Below, piece after piece: positions 1 through 12,125 of a stretch of 64,000 bases of DNA (position 1 is the first letter of the stretch; every line of letters begins with the position of its first letter). The notes beneath the pieces are model-generated. The model searched no databases and had not been told where the DNA came from. It saw nothing but the letters and a program-made list of their open reading frames with translations. The stretch is from Candidatus Bipolaricaulota bacterium. Lineage in GTDB: Bacteria > Bipolaricaulota > Bipolaricaulia > UBA7950 > UBA9294. Location: assembly GCA_040752575.1 (NCBI GenBank), contig JBFMGK010000027.1, forward strand, positions 90,360 to 154,359. The letters run 5' to 3'. Position numbers and translations under genes: made by a program.

Positions 1-86
1 CTTGCGACGCGTCAACATCCGCGGCGAGAACGCAAGAACCCGGCGCCAAAGTGATGCGCATCACCGAACGGCCCGCCGTCGTGCCC

Positions 87-92
87 TATAAT
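87..92 (+). promoter_or_regulatory. Putative -10 element (TATAAT) upstream of the giant surface-protein gene
   Basis: Perfect TATAAT at 87-92 in high-GC intergenic DNA, ~170 nt before ATG 260; no convincing -35. Confidence 0.5.
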
Positions 93-104
93 GGGTTCGG
101 ATGC

Positions 105-216
105 CTCCGTGATTGGGTTCCCGGCTTGCTGATCAGGATTCCGTGCGATCCTTCGCGCGGGGAACCGAATCTGGTAGAATCCACGGGGAGCGGGCCGATC
201 GGCGAGGTGCCCGTTC
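105..216 (+). ncRNA. Candidate structured 5' leader RNA (family unassigned)
   Basis: Nested stems: CTCCGTG(105-111)/CACGGGG(182-188); GATTGGGTTCCC(111-122)/GGGAACCGAATC(160-171), 11/12 paired; CCGTGCG/CGCGCGG inner stem; GAGCGGGC(188-195)/GCCCGTTC(209-216). Confidence 0.35.
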
Positions 217-259
217 AGGCAGGGGAGTGCGGCAAGGGCTGTCGGCGAGGAGGGAGCCA

Positions 260-3200
260 ATGGTTCGACGGGGCGTTGGGCTGGGTTGGATCTTGCTTTC
301 CGTGTGCCTCTTCTCGCTGGTGGCGGGGGCTACGTGCACGACGATCGGGGTGGCTCCGCAGGACGACGATAGCCACGAGGGCCTCTCGTGGGACAACGGT
401 ATGGGCGGGCGCGTGGCGGAGGATGGTGAATGGGCCAGCACGGATCTGAACGGCGACGAACACGAGTTCGACGACTACCCGTTCACGGGGCTCCTTCCCA
501 TCGGAGCCATAATCACCGGGTTCGAAGTGAGGATCCGCGGTTTCAGTAGCGGCGGCCCGGGCTCCGTCCAGGTTGGCCTCTCCTGGGACGGCGGGGGACA
601 GGTCGACAAGCCGGCCGGCGCTTCTCCTTGGACTGTGTCCCTGCCGACCGGCTCTGGAGCGGATGCGACATGGAATAGCGTCGAGATCGAGAATCCGCCG
701 TTCATCCACGAGTTTGCGCGCGCGGAAGTCTGCGGGGGGAACGAAACATTCACTGTCTGGGTGAAGGCCAACGTGGGCGGCGACGCGATCTACGTCGACG
801 CCGTTGAAGTGCGCGTGACGTACTACGACGAGACGGTTCCGCCGTTCACGCCGAACAACCCCACCCCGTCGAGCAGCAGCCACGTGACGGGCACGTGGTA
901 CAACGCGAGCACCCTGCCCGACCCGATGGTGACCGTCGACTGGACGAGTGCCACCGACCGGCCGACCTGCGACAGCGGGATCGACGGGTATCGTGCCATC
1001 TGGGACACAAGTTCCAGCACGAACCTTGGCGCAAGCGACGGCTTCTTCCTTGATGAGGAAGGAGTCCACTCCCAGGACTTCTCGCTCGGCAACGGCCAGT
1101 ACTGGTTCCACATCCGAAGCGTCGACAACGTGGGCAATCTTGCCGATGCAACGTCCCATCTCGGACCGTTCCGATACGACGACTTGTGGCCGACGAACCC
1201 GAACGTCACGAGCACGAAGTCGACCGGCTGGTCGAACACTGCGATCGTGCCGATCGCGGTGAGCGGCGCGAGCGATACGCTATCGGGGATCGACGGCTTC
1301 GCCATCGCGTGGACTCACTCGGGAACGTGGACACCGGATGGGGCGAAGGACCGCGAGGAGGTCTGGGGTGGCGAGACGTTCACAATGGCTGCCGACGGTC
1401 TCTGGTACTTCCACCTGATCGCGGTCGACAACGCCGGCAACTGGGCGGCGGCGGGGTCGGATGTCGAGACCCTGGGGTGGTTCGGCGTGGACACACACGC
1501 CCCGTCCGATCCGACCGCGACCAGCCCAACTCACATCGAGGGCGGGCGATCGAACAACCCGAATGTGCAGATCGGTGTGAGTGGCGCGAGCGATCCGACG
1601 CACGGCGAGCCGGGGTATGAGATGGCGTCGGGTGTGGACGGATTCTCTGTCGGCTGGGACCACAATGCCGCCGGAGTGCCTGACGCGACGAAGGACGAGG
1701 AACAAGGCTGGCCGGGAACGACGTACAACTTGGCCGACGGCACTTGGTACTTCCACCTTCGGACGGTCGACAACGCCGGCAACTGGACGAGCACCGAGAC
1801 CTTTGGGCCGGTCACCATCGATACGGAAGACCCGACGGTGACGACCGTCGTGGCGAGCGACACGCTGATCACGGATGCAGATACCCCAGGCAATGCGACG
1901 TTCACGATCACGGTGGACTTCTCCGAGCCGATGAACACCGGCATTGCACCGTCGCTGTCGTTCAATCCGGCGGTCGCGACGACGCTGACTCTGGACCTGA
2001 CGTCGGGATGGTCGGACTCCGACACGTATGTCGCGCGCTACGACGTCGCGGACGGGAACGCGCGTCTCTTCGACGTTGCGGTGGACGTGTCCGGCGCGCA
2101 AGACGTCGCTGGGAACGAACAGGAGAACTACGCGCCGCAGATTGAGTTTGAAGTGGACACGCTGAATCCGACGGTGTCGAGCGTCGTAGCGAGCGACGCG
2201 TTGATCTCAGACGCGGACACGCCGGGGGACGCGAGCTTCACGGTTACGATCGACTTCGACGACGCGATGAATACGGGCGTCGTGCCAACGGTGTCGCTCA
2301 ATCCAACCGTCGCGTCGACGTTGAGCCTTGACGGGACGTCGGGATGGGCGGACGCCAACACGTACGTCGCTCGGTACGACACGGCCGACGCGAACGTCGA
2401 CGTGGATAGCGTGACGGTCGACGTCAGCGGAGTGCGGGACGCCGCCGGGAACGATCAACAGGACTACACGCCCGTTCACGAGTTTGCGATCGATACGCTC
2501 AACCCGACGGTGAGCATCGGGGCCAATGACGTGGCGATCTACGACGGCGACGTTGGGGTCGACCGGTTCGTGGTGACGGCGACCTACTCGGAGAGCATGG
2601 ATCCCGCGGTGACGCCGTCGCTGGTCTTCCTCCCGGGGATGGCGACAACGTTCACGAACCCGAGTGGGGCGTGGAGCGTCGGCAACACCGTCTACACGTG
2701 GACATATGACGTCGTTGACGACGGTGCAGCCGTGGCGGACATCGACCTCATGGTGTCCGGCGCAGCGGACGTTGCGGGAAACACCCAGATCCTATCCGTC
2801 CGCTCGGACTACATCGACGTGGACTTGCGGAATCCGACGGTCGTGATTGCCGCGAACGATGTGGCGATCTACGACGGTGACGTTGGGGTCGACCGGTTTG
2901 CCGTGACGGCGACGTTCTCCGAAGCGATGAATCCGGCGGTCGTGCCGACGCTGACGTTTACGCCGGCGGTCGCGACGACGTTGACGAACCCGAGTGGGGC
3001 GTGGAGCGTCGGCAACACTGTCTACACGTGGACGTACGACGTGTCCGACGCGGGCGTGACCGTGGCGGATGTGGACGTGACAACCTCCGGCGGACAGGAC
3101 GTAGCGGGCAATGTCCAGGTCTCGAACACGAACACGGACTATGTGGACATCGATACGCAGAATCCCACGGTGGCGAGCGTTGTGGCGAGCGATACGCTGA

Positions 3201-5929
3201 TCACGGACGCGGATACGCCAGGCGACGCGACGTTCACGATCACGGTCGACTTCTCCGAGGCGATGAACACCGGGATTGCGCCGACGGTATCGTTCAGCCC
3301 GGTCGTGGCGCCGACCCTGACGCTGGATGGAACCTCGGGATGGGCGGACGCCGACACGTACGTGGCGCGCTACGACGTCGCGGACGGGAACGTTGACGTC
3401 AACGATGTTGCCGTCGACGTCGCCGGCGCGCAGGATGCGGCCGGGAACGGGCAGCAAGACTACGCGGCGCAGAACGAGTTTGGGATCGACACATTGAATC
3501 CTACGGTGACGAGCGTGACGGCCAGCGACACGCTGATTGCCGACGCGGACGCAGGACAGACGCGCTATGTGACGGCCAACTTCAGCGAGGCCATGGATCA
3601 AGCCGTAACGCCAGTTTTCACTTTCGCTCCGGATGTGGCCTCGACGTTGACGCACACTGGAGGATTGTGGCAGACGACGACGCGCTACCGGGCGTCGTAT
3701 CTGGCCGTCGATGCAGGCGTGGACGTCGACAGTGTGACGGTCGATGTGACGGGAACGAGAGACGAAGCCGGCAACGCCCAACAGGACTACGCGCCGCAGA
3801 ACGAGTTCGCGATCGACACACTGAATCCCACGGTTCTCAGCATCGCGCTGAGCGACAACCTGATCACCGATGCTGACGTCGGCGGAACGTTCACGGTGAC
3901 GATCGACTACAGCGAGCCGATGCAGTCGGGCGTGGCGCCGACCGTGGTCTTTGACCCGGCGCTCGACACGACATTCTCGCTCCTTCTGACAAGCGGCTGG
4001 TCTGACGGCGACACCTACGTCGCGCGATACGCGGTTCTCGACGGCAACGTCACCGTGGACGATGACGACGTGCAGGTGTCGGCGGCAAGGGACTTGGCTG
4101 GCAACGTGCAGATCCCGTCGAGCCTCGACAACGACCTCGACATCGACACCGAGAACCCGATCATCAGCAACTTCGTTGTCACGGGTGGGCCGGTGGGCAC
4201 GAAGAACGGAAACGACTGCGTGCGTGAGGTCACGTTCGTCGCTACGGTGACCGATCCGAACGGCCGCATGGATCCGGGGGACATCGTGATCACGAGCGCG
4301 ACGGTGCCCGCGGGCAATGCGCAGATCGGCGTGCCCTACGACGTGGTTCGCACGGCCGTCGACGTAGATGAAGCGACGATCGAAGGCGTCGTCGACGTGT
4401 ACGACCTGACAGGCTGTCCGGCCTTCCCGCGGATCGTCCTCGATGCGACGGACCTCGTCGGCAACGAGGCAGCCCAAGCGTGGGCGGAGGACGACGTCTA
4501 CGATCTCGTGATCCCGACGATCAACGACTTCACGTTCCACACGGACGATACGTACACGACGACGACCGACGAGTACGAGGTCGACGGGTGCTGTGTGACG
4601 ACCGTCTACTTCTCGGCGAACGTCACGGACAACTGCTGCATCGACGACGGCAACGTTTCGGTCTCGGTTTCGCTGCCGACTCTGAATGCGATCCTTGAGA
4701 ACGTTTGGTGGGAGCCCACGCAGGCGGGGCAGAAACGCGTCGACCTTGTCGGGCACGCCGACGTTCGCTGCGTGACGTCGTGCCCCGCGCGTGTCGAGGT
4801 CGTGATCACGGCCCATGATTGCTGCGGCAACGACGCCGTGCCCGTCACGTCGGGCGCAGGCACGGGGCTCGTGTACGATCGGATGGCTCCGGAGCCCAGC
4901 AACGACCCCGACGGCTACGAGGCGTCGCGCTGTGACGGACTCGAGGTGCGACGCGACAACGATGGTCAGTATCGCCTGATGATTCGCGAGAACACGCCGA
5001 CGTACATCGATGTGCTCTGCAACGACACCGACAACTGCTCGCGTTGCGCGTGCTGCGGAACCCTCTGGATCCACGACATCGTCGAGTATCCGGAGTACGC
5101 CACGTTGACGATCGTCGACGACGAAGGAGACTGCTCCGGGGGAACGAGCCTGCGGTTCGCGCCGGATCGCGGCTATCTAGGCCCCGACCGGTTCACCTAC
5201 CGGATCGTCGATGCGTGCGGGAACATTTCGGACACGGCGACCGCCTACACGGAGACGATCCGCGAGGTGGACGTCGAGGATGTTTTCGCGGTCGGGTGCG
5301 CCGCGAGCGCCATCCGAATCACGGTCGAAGCGACGGACCTGTGGGTCGACCCCGGGTCGCCGGACCTGATCCCATTCGGGTTCTCCATCCTGCAGGATCC
5401 CGCGCACGGGTTGCTCTGGATCGACCCGGCGAGCCTGCGCTACACACCGCCCAGCACGACGGTCGACCCGTTGTACGGCGTAGTCCCCACGATGACGTTC
5501 ACGGAGTCGGCCGCGATCGACCTTGTCTACACGCCGGCGGCGGATTTCGAGGGGAGAGATGCCTTTCGCGTGCTGTTCAGCGATCCCTACGGCGGACGTA
5601 CGGTGGGGCGCGTCGACGTAGCCGTGACGCCGTGCGGATCGGGCGAGGGAACCATGCCGGGGCTGGAGGTGTCGCGCGGGCGGTCGCTGGCCCTCATCAT
5701 GCCGTTGAGCTTCGATCCCAACCGCGAGAGTGGCATCCTCCTGGTCTCCTTGGAGGACGGCATGCCGTTCGCGGCGGGGGTCGAGACAACCTGGAGCGAA
5801 CGGGTGGGCCGGACGATGGTCTGGGTGGACGCGTCCGAGGTTCCGGAGGGAGACTATCGGCTGGAGCTGCCTCTTGGCAACGGCGAGGTCGTAAGCGTTA
5901 CGATCGCGGTGGTAGGGGAGGGCGAATGA
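260..5929 (+). CDS. Giant secreted Ig-like repeat surface protein / adhesin (~1,889 aa)
   Basis: ATG 260 follows GGAGG (249-253); hydrophobic signal-like N-terminus; 3 repeats with [W/Y]-[Y/W]-FHxxxVDNxGN; 7 Ig-like repeats delimited by DTxNPTV with D(A/V)AGN motifs; cadherin/tandem-95-like domains (GPDRFTYRIVD, YTPAADFEGRDAF); very acidic, Thr/Val/Asp-rich. Confidence 0.9.
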   Translation: MVRRGVGLGWILLSVCLFSLVAGATCTTIGVAPQDDDSHEGLSWDNGMGGRVAEDGEWASTDLNGDEHEFDDYPFTGLLPIGAIITGFEVRIRGFSSGGPGSVQVGLSWDGGGQVDKPAGASPWTVSLPTGSGADATWNSVEIENPPFIHEFARAEVCGGNETFTVWVKANVGGDAIYVDAVEVRVTYYDETVPPFTPNNPTPSSSSHVTGTWYNASTLPDPMVTVDWTSATDRPTCDSGIDGYRAIWDTSSSTNLGASDGFFLDEEGVHSQDFSLGNGQYWFHIRSVDNVGNLADATSHLGPFRYDDLWPTNPNVTSTKSTGWSNTAIVPIAVSGASDTLSGIDGFAIAWTHSGTWTPDGAKDREEVWGGETFTMAADGLWYFHLIAVDNAGNWAAAGSDVETLGWFGVDTHAPSDPTATSPTHIEGGRSNNPNVQIGVSGASDPTHGEPGYEMASGVDGFSVGWDHNAAGVPDATKDEEQGWPGTTYNLADGTWYFHLRTVDNAGNWTSTETFGPVTIDTEDPTVTTVVASDTLITDADTPGNATFTITVDFSEPMNTGIAPSLSFNPAVATTLTLDLTSGWSDSDTYVARYDVADGNARLFDVAVDVSGAQDVAGNEQENYAPQIEFEVDTLNPTVSSVVASDALISDADTPGDASFTVTIDFDDAMNTGVVPTVSLNPTVASTLSLDGTSGWADANTYVARYDTADANVDVDSVTVDVSGVRDAAGNDQQDYTPVHEFAIDTLNPTVSIGANDVAIYDGDVGVDRFVVTATYSESMDPAVTPSLVFLPGMATTFTNPSGAWSVGNTVYTWTYDVVDDGAAVADIDLMVSGAADVAGNTQILSVRSDYIDVDLRNPTVVIAANDVAIYDGDVGVDRFAVTATFSEAMNPAVVPTLTFTPAVATTLTNPSGAWSVGNTVYTWTYDVSDAGVTVADVDVTTSGGQDVAGNVQVSNTNTDYVDIDTQNPTVASVVASDTLITDADTPGDATFTITVDFSEAMNTGIAPTVSFSPVVAPTLTLDGTSGWADADTYVARYDVADGNVDVNDVAVDVAGAQDAAGNGQQDYAAQNEFGIDTLNPTVTSVTASDTLIADADAGQTRYVTANFSEAMDQAVTPVFTFAPDVASTLTHTGGLWQTTTRYRASYLAVDAGVDVDSVTVDVTGTRDEAGNAQQDYAPQNEFAIDTLNPTVLSIALSDNLITDADVGGTFTVTIDYSEPMQSGVAPTVVFDPALDTTFSLLLTSGWSDGDTYVARYAVLDGNVTVDDDDVQVSAARDLAGNVQIPSSLDNDLDIDTENPIISNFVVTGGPVGTKNGNDCVREVTFVATVTDPNGRMDPGDIVITSATVPAGNAQIGVPYDVVRTAVDVDEATIEGVVDVYDLTGCPAFPRIVLDATDLVGNEAAQAWAEDDVYDLVIPTINDFTFHTDDTYTTTTDEYEVDGCCVTTVYFSANVTDNCCIDDGNVSVSVSLPTLNAILENVWWEPTQAGQKRVDLVGHADVRCVTSCPARVEVVITAHDCCGNDAVPVTSGAGTGLVYDRMAPEPSNDPDGYEASRCDGLEVRRDNDGQYRLMIRENTPTYIDVLCNDTDNCSRCACCGTLWIHDIVEYPEYATLTIVDDEGDCSGGTSLRFAPDRGYLGPDRFTYRIVDACGNISDTATAYTETIREVDVEDVFAVGCAASAIRITVEATDLWVDPGSPDLIPFGFSILQDPAHGLLWIDPASLRYTPPSTTVDPLYGVVPTMTFTESAAIDLVYTPAADFEGRDAFRVLFSDPYGGRTVGRVDVAVTPCGSGEGTMPGLEVSRGRSLALIMPLSFDPNRESGILLVSLEDGMPFAAGVETTWSERVGRTMVWVDASEVPEGDYRLELPLGNGEVVSVTIAVVGEGE
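1820..4144 (+). repeat. Seven tandem 327-336-bp intragenic Ig-domain repeats
   Basis: Unit starts at 1820, 2156, 2492, 2822, 3152, 3488, 3815; near-identical DNA such as ACGAACCCGAGTGGGGCGTGGAGCGTCGGCAACAC at 2654 and 2984. Confidence 0.9.
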
Positions 5930-7419
5930 ACCGCTGGGTGAAATGGGCCGTGTTGTTTGTCGCCTTGGGATGCGTCAGGTGCAACGCACTGGCGAACCAG
6001 ACCCCCGAGCTACCCGACGCTGTCGTGACGGTCGTACAGGACCGTCCCGAACTTGTGCGCATGGCCGCGAGCGATGCGGACCTCGACCCCATGGATCCCC
6101 AAGCTCACCCGTTGCGGTTCGTACTTCTCGAGGGTCCGACTCACGGGGCGCTGGTCGGAGACCTCGACGCCGTTTCGTACGCCCCCCCGCACGAGGCGTG
6201 GATTGAGCTGACCTACGTCCCGGCAGCCGCGTTCGTCGGAAGGGATGCCTGGACCCTTGTCGTTGTCGATTCGCTGGGTGCGGCGTCTCGCGTCGCCACG
6301 ATCGCGGTCGACGTCGTCAGAGGGCGTGCCGAAGGTCTTCTCGCCGGGACGTGGGATGCCGAGTTCACGTTCAACGTGCAGTCGGCGTCGCTGGTCGCGC
6401 TGAGCCAGCGGATCACCGAGGTCTACCGCGTGGGCGGTCTCACGCTGAGCGGGACGGCGCAGTTCAACCTCGAATCTCCCGGAGGGGTCCAGACGGTAGT
6501 CTTTGACGCGCTGCGGTTCGACTCCGATCTACGCGTAGGCGACCTTGATGCGCGGGCTACCCTGGCTTTCGATCCCCAAGGCGCGAGCGCAGCGGACCTC
6601 TTCGACTACTTGTCGACGAACCTCTCGGCCGAGTTTCTGGGTGTCTCGCTCGCGCACTCGCTCTTCCTCACTCGTCCGCAAACGGCGTCCTATCAGACGC
6701 TCACAGCGTCGGCCGTCCTCTTGGGCGTCAGTGTCTCAAGTACGGTTCGGCTGGCCCTCGACGATGCGTGCGGCTTCGTGTTCTCGCGGAGCGATCTCGG
6801 GGCATCGTGGGCTTGGTGCGACGTTGGGCTGCACGCGGCCCTAGGCTTCGCCGACACGGGATTCGACGTTCTGAGGTTTTCCGCCTATGGAATCGCGCTT
6901 CCCGAGGTGGCGTGGCTTCCCCGTGCCGTCACGTTGAACGCGACGCTGACCTTCGCCGTCGACCAGAAGTCCCTCGACGGTGAACTGGAGTGGACCCCGA
7001 TTCGTGGCGCGTGCCTGCGTCTGTTGGCGGAGCTGGTCACATCGGGTGGAGGCCTCATCGGCGAGGGCGTGACACTGTATGGCCTGGTTCTCGATTGCCA
7101 AATCGGCGACGTGCGCGTGCGCTCCGCGACGTCGCTCGATCCGGGGAAGAACGCCGAGGTCACGGGCCAGATCGACTACTTCGAGTCCCTCACGATCTCC
7201 GGAACGCTCACATCCTGTTGTGGCATCCCCGGGACGTGGAGCGTGGCGACGTACTTTGCCCACGCTTCGACGCAGTTGTTCGACTGGGGCATGCTGCTTG
7301 CGAAGGCCGACGTCGCTCTTTCCGAGCACGTCAGCTTCCGCCTCGACGTAGTCTTCCGATCGGGCGACTTCGGCGATCCGACGTCGGAGTTCACGGTAGG
7401 GTGGGCCGTGCGCTGGTAG
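5926..7419 (+). CDS. Signal peptide + Ig/cadherin-like domain + predicted outer-membrane beta-barrel (~497 aa)
   Basis: ATGA overlap with the upstream stop; signal peptide MNRWVKWAVLFVALG; many alternating amphipathic strands; ends FTVGWAVRW with a terminal aromatic residue (beta-signal-like). Confidence 0.75.
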   Translation: MNRWVKWAVLFVALGCVRCNALANQTPELPDAVVTVVQDRPELVRMAASDADLDPMDPQAHPLRFVLLEGPTHGALVGDLDAVSYAPPHEAWIELTYVPAAAFVGRDAWTLVVVDSLGAASRVATIAVDVVRGRAEGLLAGTWDAEFTFNVQSASLVALSQRITEVYRVGGLTLSGTAQFNLESPGGVQTVVFDALRFDSDLRVGDLDARATLAFDPQGASAADLFDYLSTNLSAEFLGVSLAHSLFLTRPQTASYQTLTASAVLLGVSVSSTVRLALDDACGFVFSRSDLGASWAWCDVGLHAALGFADTGFDVLRFSAYGIALPEVAWLPRAVTLNATLTFAVDQKSLDGELEWTPIRGACLRLLAELVTSGGGLIGEGVTLYGLVLDCQIGDVRVRSATSLDPGKNAEVTGQIDYFESLTISGTLTSCCGIPGTWSVATYFAHASTQLFDWGMLLAKADVALSEHVSFRLDVVFRSGDFGDPTSEFTVGWAVRW

Positions 7420-8102
7420 TGGCGCCGTCCGCCTCGCGATCGAGAAGCCAAATCGGGTCGCCACCCGCGGGGCGGACGCGAGATGCAGGCAGGTCCTCAC
7501 CGTCGCGTAGCCGCCGCACGACGCTCGCTTTCTCTGCCCCGACGACGAGGAAGACGACGCTCTCCGTGGCATCCAGGCGAGGGATCGTCAGCGTGACGCG
7601 CCACTCAGGCTCCGCCGGAGCATGCACGGGCAGCACGAACCTGCGCTCCTCGCGCAAAGCCTGCTGCCGCGGGAACAGCGACGCGGTGTGGCCGTCGGTT
7701 CCGACGCCCAGGAAGCACAGATCGAGGCGCTCGCCGGCGCCGAGCAGGCACCGCAGATCCTGCTCCGCCCGGTCCGCTGCGTCGACCGGGTCAAGCTCGC
7801 CGAGGAACCGATGGACGTTTTGGCGCGGGATCGGGACCTCGTCGAGGAGAGCGCGGCGGATGGCCCCGAAGTTGCTCTGTGGCGAGTCGGCAGGGACGCA
7901 TCGCTCATCGGTAAGCAAGATGTGCGTCGCCTGCCAGTCGATGGGCGACGCAGCAATCCTCCGGTACGCTTCGAGCGGCGTCCGTCCTCCGGCGAGCGCG
8001 ACGATGAAGCGGCCTCGCGCGGCAATGGCGCGGCGGGCGCAGTCGACGAACAGGCGGGACGCCTCTTCAGCGACCTGGGGCGGGCCGGGCAGGACGATGG
8101 CG

Positions 8103-8110
<8 letters not shown>
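7391..8110 (-). CDS. pgl: 6-phosphogluconolactonase
   Basis: ALAGGRTP, DERCVP, LGVGTDGHTASLFP, RVTLT motifs; follows zwf. Confidence 0.93.
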
Positions 8111-9522
<1,412 letters not shown>

Positions 9523-9551
<29 letters not shown>

Positions 9552-10443
9552 GTCCCCCAAACTCCCCGCGGAGCGCGGCGACAAGCCTCGCCGCGAAGTC
9601 CTCCCCGTCTCGACTGGCGATCCTTGTGAGGAGCGCGCCCGTGATGATCGGGGCGGCCACGTCGGCGGCGATGGCCTCGGCGACCGTCCACCGCCCCTCG
9701 CCGCTGTCCGCGACCCACGGCGCGACGCTGGAGAGCGCCGGGTCGCGCGACAGCGCGCCGACGACGAGTTCGAGAAGCCACGACCGGACGACGCTTCCGC
9801 GCCCCCACAGGTCCGCAATGGACCGAAGGTCCAGGTCGAACTCGCGCTTCTTCCGCAGAAGGGCGAACCCCTCGGCGTAGGCCTGCATCAGGCCGTATTC
9901 GATGCCGTTGTGGACCATCTTCACAAAGTGGCCCGCTCCGGAGGGGCCGACGCGGCGCCAGCCGAGGCGGCCGCCTGCCGCCAGCGCGTCGAACCACGGA
10001 GAGAGAGGATCGACGTCCTCCTTTCGGCCCCCGACCATGAGGCAGTATCCCTGGCTCTCGCCGGCGACTCCTCCGCTTGTCCCCACGTCGACGAAGCCGA
10101 CCCCGCGAGCCGCGAGGGCCGCGTGGCGAGCCTGGGAGTCGCGGTAGAACGAGTTTCCACCGTCAACGACGACATCGCCCGGGGAGAGGAGGGGTCCCAG
10201 GTGAGTCGTCGCGGCATCGGTTGGCTCGCCGGCGGGGAGCATGAGCCACACGCAGCGCGGGCTCGGAAGACGAGCCATGACGTCTTCGAGATCCGTGGCC
10301 GGCTCGATGCCCCGTACTTCGGACGCCAAGCGGATGGAGACGTCCGGCGACCGATTCGTGACGACAACGTGGAACCCTGCGCGCGCTGCGCGTCGGGCGA
10401 TGCCGGATCCCATTCTTCCCAGGCCGACCACGGCGTGGTTCAT
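9523..10443 (-). CDS. gnd: 6-phosphogluconate dehydrogenase, decarboxylating (short form)
   Basis: GLGRMG, DGGNS, DVGTSGG, GAGHFVKMVHNGIEYG, DSGEGRWT, FGGH. Confidence 0.94.
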
Positions 10444-12080
10444 CGCGCCTCCTGTCTCGGGGGACGCCGCGCATACGAAGCCAGGACTTCGTCCAGCGCG
10501 GCGGCGGGGTCGCCGCCAAGGTCGTAGCTCTCGACGCGACGACCGCGAGCCCTAAGGGTTGCCGCGTCGCCGAACGCTTGGCAGAGCAAGGCGTCGGCGA
10601 GCCGCTCCCGACCCGACGGTCCTGGAGCATCGAGCGGATCTTCCGTGGCGTCGACGAGATGCACGAAGATCCCGCGGCCCGCGTCTCCCTTGTGGAGTTG
10701 GCCGGTCGAGTGGAGATACCGCGGCCCGAATCCCAGCGTCACCGCGCAGCCCGTCGCGTCGCGCAGCTGCCCCTGCAGTGCTCGCAGGCGCGCCTCGACG
10801 GCGGGCGACGGATCGAGGAACGCAAGGAGTGCAACGTAGTCCCCGACCTTCGCTGAAGCGACCTGACGGTCGAGCTCTTCGCGCGTGAGCGCCCGCCGCG
10901 TCTCCGCCGGGCGACGGCCCGACCTGCGCAGCTCCTCGAGAAGCCGGCGAGTCTCCGTCTTGGCTGACTCGACGTCGGGCTGGTTGAAGGGGTGGATCCC
11001 GAGGACATGACCGGCGATCGCCGTGGCGAACTCGGCGAGGAAGAAGATGCGTCCGAACTCGGGAGCGTCGCGATCGTCCAGGGTGAGCGCGGGGTGCCCG
11101 CCCAAAGCGAGGTCCTCGCTGCGCCGTTCTTCAAGGGGCGAAAGAGAGAGAAAGAGGCGATCGCGTCCGTAGGCCGATGCGGGAGCCAAAGGCTCGCCGA
11201 CGACGGGCAGGATGCCGCGTCCCGATTTGCCCGTGCTCTCCGCGATCAGCTGCTCGATCCAGTCCGCGAGCCCGGCGAGGTCAGGCGGCGCTTCGATCGT
11301 TAGCTTGTCGCGCCCGCCCATGGCTTGGGCGGCGAGCGACGCGCCGAGCCAGGCGCCGCGGTTATCCTGGGGAGATAGGTCCGGCGAGCACGCCGCGGCA
11401 GCCCCGCGAGCCGCGTGGAGCAGGGCTTCGAGGTCGATGCGCAGGAGAGCCCCCGGCACGAGACCTACGAGAGAAAGCGCGGCGTATCGCCCCCCGACGT
11501 TGGGGTCATTGAGGAACGTGCGACGGTAGCCGCGGGCCGCCGCCCACGCGACCAACGGACTGCCGGGGTCGGTGATCGCGACGAACCGACGTCCGGCATC
11601 GCGAGGCCCCAGAACGCCGTCCGCCTGCTCCTGGAAGTAGCGCGCAAGGGTCAGCGTCTCGCTTGTCGTCCCGGACTTCGTCGAGACGACGAACAGCGTG
11701 CGCTGCAGGTCGATCGACGCTGAGACGCGGCGCACGGCACTTGGATGCAGGGTGTCGAGGACGTGGAGCCGAGGCGCGCCTCGGTCGGGAAGACCGGCTC
11801 GCGCCATGGCGTCCGGTGCGAGACTGGATCCTCCCATGCCGAGCAGGACGACGTCGTCCAATCCCTCGCTGCGGGCCTCGTCCGAGAAGTCGCTGAGCTC
11901 GGCCAGGTGCGTGGCCATCGTGTCCGGAAGACGCAACCACCCGAGGCGGTCGACGATTTCGTTGGGGATCGGCGACCAGAGGCGGTGATCTCCGGCCCAG
12001 AGACGCGCGATGACGTTGTCGCGTTCCAGGGCGCAGAGAACGTCACGAAAGCTCTGCGTCGCATGCTTGCCGTCTTCCAT
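10440..12080 (-). CDS. pgi: Glucose-6-phosphate isomerase (type resembling the PGI half of Tal/Pgi fusions)
   Basis: LGMGGSSL, STKSGTT, ITDPGS, GGRY, EQLIAESTGK, FNQPDVESAK, GPRYLHSTGQLHKG; AGGAGG RBS before ATG 12080. Confidence 0.85.
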   Translation of the reverse strand: MEDGKHATQSFRDVLCALERDNVIARLWAGDHRLWSPIPNEIVDRLGWLRLPDTMATHLAELSDFSDEARSEGLDDVVLLGMGGSSLAPDAMARAGLPDRGAPRLHVLDTLHPSAVRRVSASIDLQRTLFVVSTKSGTTSETLTLARYFQEQADGVLGPRDAGRRFVAITDPGSPLVAWAAARGYRRTFLNDPNVGGRYAALSLVGLVPGALLRIDLEALLHAARGAAAACSPDLSPQDNRGAWLGASLAAQAMGGRDKLTIEAPPDLAGLADWIEQLIAESTGKSGRGILPVVGEPLAPASAYGRDRLFLSLSPLEERRSEDLALGGHPALTLDDRDAPEFGRIFFLAEFATAIAGHVLGIHPFNQPDVESAKTETRRLLEELRRSGRRPAETRRALTREELDRQVASAKVGDYVALLAFLDPSPAVEARLRALQGQLRDATGCAVTLGFGPRYLHSTGQLHKGDAGRGIFVHLVDATEDPLDAPGPSGRERLADALLCQAFGDAATLRARGRRVESYDLGGDPAAALDEVLASYARRPPRQEAR

Positions 12081-12125
12081 GGACCCTCCTGGCTGTGTCA
12101 CGATAACACAAACGGCGGCGCGGGG

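Follow-up and report, generated by a model that had tools for sequence, protein, structure and literature searches.

The present work concerns a pair of adjacent genes at the start of a 64,000-nucleotide stretch of DNA (hereafter the window) from Candidatus Bipolaricaulota bacterium (assembly GCA_040752575.1, contig JBFMGK010000027.1; G000:C27:90360-154359 in our numbering of genomes and contigs), whose source bin measures 2.16 Mb and is 94.7% complete. The two genes are co-directional and fill positions 113-7419 of the window; the first encodes a giant immunoglobulin (Ig)-repeat envelope protein, here called the cargo, and the second a predicted outer-membrane barrel protein. The stop codon of the cargo gene and the start codon of the barrel gene overlap in the letters ATGA (context GAATGA), and on the two sides of this boundary the proteins carry a pair of related domains, B and N, which form the main subject of this report. 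The features of the pair, by window position, are as follows.

260..5929, + strand: cargo gene, encoding the giant Ig-repeat envelope protein of 1889 amino acids (aa) from the ATG at 260, in a frame open from 113 (open reading frame and translation)
4970..5260, + strand: domain A, third from the cargo C-terminus, of the Big_9 type and carrying a Cys-rich insertion (aa 1574-1661 being the cargo's best match to Big_9 in Pfam; hidden Markov model (HMM) envelope)
5261..5632, + strand: domain B, the penultimate cargo domain, of a Big_9 subfamily, with a variable insertion found in the cargo only and flanking conserved Cys (HMM envelope)
5660..5911, + strand: domain C, the C-terminal all-beta domain of ~84 aa, ending ...PLGNGE.V.VTIAV (alignments)
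5926..7419, + strand: barrel gene, encoding the outer-membrane barrel protein of 497 aa, its ATG overlapping the cargo stop (open reading frame and translation)
5926..5997, + strand: signal peptide of the barrel protein, aa 1-24, MNRWVKWAVLFVALGCVRCNALA (AlphaFold2 helix at residues 3-23; assigned by inspection)
5998..6330, + strand: domain N, Ig-like, at the N-terminus of the barrel protein (HMM envelope; AlphaFold2 strands within 32-131, with a predicted local distance difference test score (pLDDT) mostly >90)
6331..7416, + strand: predicted 22-strand beta-barrel, aa 136-497, ending ...VRW (AlphaFold2, VIA-align)

A sequence-only reading of this DNA had aligned the penultimate cargo domain by eye with the N-terminal domain of the barrel protein, and our analyses find both the coordinates and the sequences to be as it described. 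BLASTP of B against N gives 30/93 identities (32%; 46.2 bits, E 5e-12), and comparison of the two profiles by hhalign (N built from 62 sequences, B from 38) gives a probability of 99.9, an E-value of 3e-34 and a score of 187 over 102 columns. The corresponding values for the neighbouring Big_9 domain A are E 5e-9 and a score of 52 with N, and E 1.4e-8 and a score of 50 with B. The specificity of the relationship was assessed on a set of 171 proteins, which included ~53 generic tandem-95/Big_9 proteins, together with all open reading frames of at least 60 aa from the source genome. The HMM of N scores 120-188 bits on the barrel N domains and 32.8-90.5 bits, over nearly the full length, on the cargo B domains of 29 out of 29 orthologues, and at most 28.2 bits, mostly over the C-terminal third only, on every other Big_9-type domain of the set. 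Reciprocally, the HMM of B scores 120-174 bits on the cargo B domains, 44-79 bits on the barrel N domains and no more than 29.1 bits on generic domains. The window's own N and B lie at the low end of these reciprocal ranges (36 and 52 bits) and still above the generic domains. All 24 of the N and B copies examined are members of Big_9 at E<=0.01 (best 1.5e-11). By these sequence comparisons the N-B similarity is real, specific and family-wide, exceeding that to generic tandem-95/Big_9 domains, and N and B are best described as sister copies within a lineage-specific Big_9 subfamily, since they are mutually closest and their reciprocal HMM scores are higher than those of all generic Big_9 and tandem-95 domains.

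The insertion of the form YxPP, which the same reading took to be common to the two domains, stands in part. A short strand of the form Y-x-x-P is indeed present in both (the barrel-family consensus here is Y-x-x-P-H), but the insertion that follows it, which varies in length from 3 to 18 residues, is found in the cargo copies only. Two conserved Cys residues flank domain B, and domain N is without them. Domains N, B and A share with the tandem-95/Big_9/cadherin-like adhesins their Big_9 membership, and some of them also match Cadherin_4 or Cadherin_5; they differ from these adhesins in that N and B constitute a separate subfamily which occurs once per protein at fixed positions and not in tandem arrays.

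The cargo begins with a signal-peptide-like segment (MVRRGVGLGWILLSVCLFSLVAGA). It contains numerous all-beta repeats as well as Cys-rich modules, and domains A, B and C make up a conserved module at its C-terminus. Big_9 is its sole Pfam match (33.1 bits), and NCBIfam yields for both proteins only weak tandem-95 and OmpL47-type matches, which lie under the cut-offs. The cargo orthologues (n=29) range in length from 1152 to 2186 aa, and the three C-terminal all-beta domains, which are common to all of them, are the only part that is conserved among these fibres of 1150-2190 aa. The AlphaFold2 model of the A-B-C module has a pLDDT of 81.9, and its domain B is a generic Ig-like beta-sandwich, with VIA Z-scores of ~8 to the Ig modules of SraP/GspB (model residues 14-234). 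Of all marks of the cargo C-terminus, domain C is conserved the most widely; within the source genome it is confined to the cargo, in Pfam no family matches it at E<=10 beyond chance-level matches, and NCBIfam gives no match for it either. Its last two strands bear a resemblance, by eye, to the sorting domain of the type IX secretion system (T9SS); none of 16 domain-C sequences matches the Por_Secre_tail-type T9SS C-terminal domain family at E<=10. The C-terminal third of the cargo also contains several conserved vicinal Cys motifs (viz. DDCC, DNCCI, DCCGN and the Cys-rich insert of domain A, within window positions 4400-5700).

For the downstream protein, an outer-membrane barrel of 22 strands is predicted. 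Its AlphaFold2 model (from 65 sequences; pLDDT 88.4, predicted template modelling score 0.65) has 22 strands over residues 138-496, and the linker between domain N and the barrel is only ~6 residues long. The barrel resembles in its fold the 22-strand TonB-dependent transporters, for which VIA-align gives Z-scores of 15-19 over ~330 residues at a root-mean-square deviation of ~4 Å; the best of these matches is to PirA (Z 19.1, 4.3 Å, 332 residues aligned), and those to Cir, BtuB and FhuA have Z-scores of 15-18 (Cir and BtuB ~18). The two also have in common a domain of ~110 aa at the N-terminus, directly before the barrel. The resemblance is, however, one of fold only: identity is 7-11%, neither Plug (PF07715) nor TonB_dep_Rec (PF00593) is matched in the barrel protein at E<=1, domain N is Ig-like and of the Big_9 type and does not have the plug fold, and the loops here are short, the whole barrel being contained in 362 aa. 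Usher pores and porins are likewise among the Foldseek matches of the barrel (E ~1e-5). The ushers PapC and FimD likewise have a large barrel, of 24 strands; they handle Ig-fold substrates and possess a plug and periplasmic domains that are beta-sandwiches. Their match in fold to the present barrel is weaker (E ~5e-6, TMq 0.33), the Usher family (PF00577) is not matched by the barrel protein in Pfam, genes for a chaperone or a pilin do not adjoin the pair, and the substrate would be a single giant polypeptide; by these comparisons an usher is not readily recognised in the locus. The barrel part matches no Pfam or NCBIfam family; Big_9 reaches 21 bits in the whole protein, under its cut-off of 23.6, and 24.6 bits, above that cut-off, with domain N alone. 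Among the conserved Cys residues of the barrel (window positions 6800-7250), C431-C432 are near-invariant and C298 and C363 invariant; the conserved cysteines of the two proteins may serve in disulfides, metal binding or cross-links. A two-partner secretion transporter of the TpsB/Omp85 type, which would combine POTRA domains with a 16-strand barrel, was considered and rejected, as the protein has no POTRA, ShlB or Omp85 match in Pfam and 22 predicted strands, and the Omp85 of the source genome is a different gene. The assignment of the pair as cargo plus barrel, which had been proposed from the sequence, is upheld by this predicted barrel and by the conserved and translationally coupled arrangement of the two genes described below.

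In related loci of other species the cargo gene lies 5' of the barrel gene in 12 out of 16, and the remaining 4 are cut at contig ends. A 4-nucleotide ATGA overlap was detected by script in 9 of 13 pairs, two more look by eye like GTGA overlaps, and two pairs are separated by gaps of ~110 nucleotides. The arrangement indicates that the cargo and barrel genes are translationally coupled and that this coupling is conserved across the phylum. In some genomes from another family of the class (G009:C38:56990-58191 and G023:C1:26674-27851), the barrel gene is found on the opposite strand, right behind the part that encodes the cargo C-terminal domain, and the genes therefore remain neighbours even after inversion.

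At the level of the phylum, a combined N+B profile has matches in 96 of 184 genomes at E<=1e-5 (78 of them at 50 bits or more), and a profile of domain C also has matches in 96 of the 184, at E<=1e-3. In 27 genomes a domain of the N/B type is present in both of two adjacent same-strand frames. The presence of B and N could be classed in 49 of the 50 loci with a domain-C score of at least 34 bits (one fragment was excluded): 21 carry both domains, 17 carry B alone, 3 carry N alone and 8 carry neither. Among the loci with strong domain-C matches (at least 59 bits, n=28), B is found in 25 and N in 22. The notion that N and B are never both lost is unsupported, given the 8 of 49 loci that lack both, one of which (G086) has a barrel; most of these eight have weak domain-C matches and are of doubtful orthology, and the domains of G086 may be too diverged to detect.

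The history of the two copies can be followed in part from their divergence. Mean identity is 54.5% among N domains and 50.4% among B domains, and 22.4% and 21.5%, respectively, between these and domain A; the conservation of N and B across lineages matches that of the barrel itself. N and B from the same locus are on average 33.8% identical, which equals the value for different loci (33.4 +/- 3.7%). In a tree with A as the outgroup, all 24 of the N and B sequences form one clade, within which the 13 B sequences together make up a monophyletic group (support 0.76). Because N-B identity is equal within and between loci and the tree recovers these clades, the duplication that gave rise to N and B is older than the sampled close family and was not followed by general concerted evolution, which was rejected for the 11 close-family loci and is seen only in G121. 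In that genome (G121:C42; L033, 2130-2770 and 3360-3990), the 3' end of the cargo gene and the 5' end of the barrel gene form a direct repeat of ~640 bp, 1217 bp apart, of which ~390 bp are 100% identical, and the two domains are 98% identical as protein. The repeat extends into the first residues of the barrel, a 2-bp difference ends the cargo frame, and domain C stands in a separate frame of 103 aa. This repeat reflects either a very recent event at the gene boundary, by duplication or by gene conversion, or a misassembly of the bin.

The wider family of the barrel provides the context in which the pair can be understood. A search with the barrel protein at E<=1e-3 retrieved 87 proteins, viz. 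the query, 85 full-length homologues (37-55% identity) and one distant barrel-only protein (26%), and a profile of the barrel alone matched 646 clusters (at 50% identity) at E<=1e-3 among 1.84 billion representatives. The names and Atlas taxa available for members of this family indicate Bipolaricaulota only. Their architectures vary and include the barrel by itself (~360-400 aa) and the barrel preceded by one Ig domain (~495-510 aa), by two Big_9 domains (~575 aa) or by DUF11/DUF7507 domains (~690-780 aa). The N-type domain is kept on distantly related barrels (158-260 bits for the barrel, 80-119 bits for N). No fusion of fibre and barrel was found among the top 150 of the 646 clusters, in which the longest protein has 927 aa, nor, as weaker evidence, among 7998 longer candidates of 871-2485 aa.

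At least five further members of the family are encoded in the source genome (three on C75, one on C5 and one on C43). The three on C75 are tandem barrel-only paralogues (C75:437-4480, + strand). The single SLH protein of this genome lies at a contig end (C15:~240-860, - strand) and has a signal peptide, an SLH domain, a coiled coil and a C-terminal transmembrane helix, and by virtue of the last three features it resembles Omp-alpha; C15 and C75 may be neighbouring contigs, since both of their ends carry a similar repeat element. In two of five genomes checked, the SLH gene is followed on the same strand by barrel-only paralogues, two in G128 and one in G117; in G006 a barrel lies 2.5 kb from the SLH gene on the other strand, and in G005 and G175 the genes are not adjacent.

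Published accounts describe a similar arrangement: in Bipolaricaulota an OmpM-like tether is divided between an SLH protein and a barrel protein that are adjacent (10.1101/2021.05.31.446380), and a split Omp-alpha/Omp-beta tether is given there for Thermotogae, Bipolaricaulota and Fraserbacteria (10.1101/2021.05.31.446380; PMC10160955). Because its barrel-only paralogues follow the SLH gene, in agreement with this published split tether, the barrel of the window resembles Omp-beta, and gene order and family membership identify it as a paralogue of the Omp-beta-like tether barrel, with an Ig fibre encoded upstream where the tether has its SLH stalk. The likeness to Omp-beta rests on the Bipolaricaulota paralogues and on gene order. 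Both systems consist of two genes with the partner upstream and the barrel downstream. They differ in that the upstream partner here is an 1889-aa Ig-repeat protein without SLH domain or coiled coil, and in that the barrel here carries at its N-terminus an Ig domain which is a paralogue of the penultimate domain of its partner. An SLH-porin cluster of Atribacterota, which the Atlas gives as a structural neighbour (TM-score 0.63), is to be read as a lead only.

Pairing with a large upstream protein recurs elsewhere in the barrel family, in three further cases. On C43 of the source genome (8146-12754, - strand), a protein of 1170 aa with HYR-like and Big_9 domains precedes a barrel paralogue that has no N-terminal Ig domain. 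Two other loci comprise a giant protein of 2530 aa with a barrel of 398 aa (L037; G165:C83, 908-9815) and a protein of 1691 aa with one of 554 aa (L038; G114:C157, 4426-11262), and the giant proteins of both end in helix-rich regions. The DUF11/DUF7507-type N-extension of some barrels is ~40% identical to the N-terminal domains of the L037 giant protein.

Directly 5' of the gene pair are murC, murB, ftsQ, ftsA and ftsZ (L023; G000:C27:80361-90360 together with window positions 1-260), the stop of ftsZ and the start of the cargo gene being ~590 bp apart, and the Omp85/BamA gene of the source genome (C27:77935-78636) lies 12 kb upstream of the pair. FtsA- and FtsZ-like frames were also recognized by eye 5' of the pair in at least six related loci of other species. 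Such a constant place behind ftsQAZ hints that the pair may be linked to envelope architecture or division. On the 3' side, pgl, zwf and pgi lie on the opposite strand, their products being 6-phosphogluconolactonase-like, glucose-6-phosphate dehydrogenase and phosphoglucose isomerase (window 7391-12101, - strand, convergent to the pair). Scans of window positions 1-8000 gave 3 promoter-like sites (0.7 expected), none of them 5' of the cargo start, and 2 terminator-like sites (4.0 expected). Named homologues of the pair come from Candidatus Bipolaricaulota or Acetothermia. Among sequencing runs, one DNA run contains 5% of the sampled words, and no RNA run is listed.

The outer membrane to which these proteins would belong is described as toga-like and poor in lipopolysaccharide (LPS) (PMC6092417; 10.1101/2025.11.21.689855) and, for the phylum, as bearing a hexagonal surface lattice of 6.25 nm (10.1101/2025.11.21.689855). 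A Bipolaricaulota genome without LPS genes has been reported, and no adhesins were annotated in it (PMC6092417). In the papers searched on the Bipolaricaulota/Acetothermia outer membrane and on Big_9 barrels and adhesins, we found no description of the present module or of sister domains across a gene boundary. What is new here is the paralogy of N and B, their distribution with natural variants that lack N or have a decayed B, and a recent event of homogenisation.

These results are most readily brought together if the pair is a conserved envelope module of the Bipolaricaulota, consisting of an Ig fibre and an Omp-beta-like barrel that bear the sister domains B and N at their facing ends as the outcome of a duplication across the gene boundary; the balance of the evidence tips towards this interpretation, though not by much. 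According to it, the giant Ig-domain fibre would be exported by Sec and would pair with a dedicated 22-strand outer-membrane barrel, which would be the barrel half of a split OmpM-type tether whose SLH/coiled-coil partner was replaced by an Ig fibre. B and N would stem from a duplication between the two genes that took place earlier than the divergence of the sampled lineages; both copies are kept under purifying selection, and in at least one lineage recombination would have homogenised them again. The A-B-C module would be the barrel-proximal end of the fibre, because it is the only conserved part of the fibre, because domain C is the most widespread, and because the partners of a split OmpM must re-associate with the barrel. 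The module would probably be located at the N-terminus of the barrel, most likely at the periplasmic mouth, since in a barrel with an even number of strands the N-terminus, and with it domain N and its 6-residue linker, comes to lie on that side. B and C would constitute the constant part of such a junction, and N a frequent and dispensable accessory copy on the side of the barrel. The fibre itself may stand on the cell surface or span the wide periplasm of the toga.

Several observations weigh against this interpretation or narrow it. Firstly, the sharing of a domain across the boundary is no general rule of the barrel family, since the three other giant-plus-barrel pairs are without it: for L038 there is no BLASTP match between the two proteins, for the C43 pair nothing is apparent by eye, and for L037 there is only a 32-residue match at chance level (E 0.05). 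Secondly, N is missing and B kept in at least five complete pairs (G111, G112, G167, G171 and G006), whose barrels begin straight after the signal peptide, and N is therefore not required for the module. The absence of N points to secondary loss, as the short-form barrels score like the long forms on the barrel HMM (463-487 bits) and the B domains of the N-less lineages nest in the tree among those of N-bearing lineages. Thirdly, in G119 and G115 N is retained and the cargo B has decayed to 17-30 bits; G119 (30 bits) is one of the three loci classed as carrying N alone, the other two of which are cut or fragmented. Fourthly, N is paraphyletic in the tree, with a support of 0.17, and poorly separated at its own base, so that neither the direction nor the number of the duplications is placed by it, and the cargo copies of more distant families group among the barrel copies. 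These distant cargo copies score 93-104 bits on the HMM of N as against 49-61 bits on that of B, and because they resemble N more than B, either the B of the close family has evolved fast, gaining its insertion and cysteines, or exchange has occurred more than once. Lastly, nearly all of the genomes are metagenome bins, and the G121 repeat could for this reason be an artefact of assembly.

If the two domains do have a joint function, the most direct form of it would be docking, in which N on the barrel binds B on the fibre, possibly with Ca2+, as an Ig-Ig joint that re-joins the halves of a split OmpM-like protein. A homotypic interface of this kind, which the sequence-only reading had put forward, is possible and, in our estimation, rather unlikely. 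It would account for two translationally coupled proteins bearing specific sister domains at the ends that face each other, and for these domains being as well conserved as the barrel; the split Omp-alpha/Omp-beta system offers a precedent for upstream partners that must re-associate with a barrel (10.1101/2021.05.31.446380), and the homogenisation in G121 shows that the copies are interchangeable in sequence. Docking does not, however, sit well with the complete pairs in which N is absent and B well conserved (143-154 bits to the B-HMM in L016 and L018), with the decay of B where N is kept in G119 and G115, or with N-B identity being no higher within loci than across them.

The contrary view is that N and B have no functional link, the domain having been copied between neighbouring genes by local duplication or recombination, so that both would be spacer Ig domains and the barrel a porin or a tether that does not touch B. 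We hold this explanation, too, to be rather unlikely. Recombination across the boundary, of the sort it calls for, is seen in G121, N and B are each dispensable in some lineages, and there is free variation in the N-extensions of the barrels, which may be missing or may consist of one Big_9 domain, of two, or of DUF11/DUF7507 domains. Against it, both copies remain 50-55% identical across lineages, as conserved as the barrel, the N-type domain persists on distantly related barrels, and the pairing and translational coupling of the genes are conserved as well.

A third explanation, which we consider improbable, is that the Ig domain of ~110-125 aa is an interchangeable plug that fills the lumen or periplasmic mouth of an otherwise plugless barrel, N acting in cis and B in trans and the latter locking the fibre C-terminus in place, in the manner of the usher plug or of LptE in LptD; either copy could then be lost. 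The barrel has the size of a TonB-dependent transporter and no match to the Plug family, N is placed ~6 residues before it, in the position of the transporter plug, and loci with B alone, N alone and both domains are all found. Many of the VIA alignments also start inside N (model residue ~50), opposite residues of the plug region; these alignments, however, total 318-339 residues, no more than the 332 of the barrel-only PirA alignment, and few if any residues of N can therefore match the plug region. The existence of barrel-only paralogues without an Ig partner speaks against a plug, as does the G086 barrel at a locus without B and N, unless its domains have escaped detection by divergence. 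Large open barrels are, moreover, known in related phyla. The more specific proposition that a purpose-built Ig-Ig junction, or a plug acting in cis and trans in a plugless barrel, locks the Ig fibre to the Omp-beta-like barrel and evolved from a split OmpM tether by the swapping of its SLH stalk is, taken as a whole, doubtful. An ancestor in the form of a split inverse autotransporter (intimin/invasin-like), as had also been suggested from the sequence, or of a classical autotransporter is very improbable, the loose analogy of an Ig-repeat passenger and an outer-membrane barrel encoded by adjacent genes being outweighed by the 22 strands in place of 12, the separate signal peptide of each protein, the order of the genes (with the cargo gene upstream, a fusion would have the classical or OmpM-like order), the absence of any match to autotransporter or intimin-barrel Pfam families at E<=1 and the lack of a fusion in the searches described above.

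The significance of the conserved fibre-and-barrel module lies in the membrane that it would serve. Bipolaricaulota and Thermotogae branch close to the base of the Terrabacteria. Their toga outer membranes, which are rich in protein, figure in the debate on the origin and loss of the second membrane. We know of no mechanism that accounts for the re-association of the split Omp-alpha and Omp-beta halves. The present locus represents a second, paralogous module of partner plus barrel, in which two readily recognised sister domains mark the probable junction and for which nature has supplied variants in the form of N-less, B-decayed and homogenised copies. If the junction is not real, the locus would still provide a clean example of the exchange of a domain between adjacent genes; if it is real, it would represent a new principle of outer-membrane anchoring, in which a fibre is coupled in a previously undescribed manner to the toga-like membrane of deep-branching diderms.

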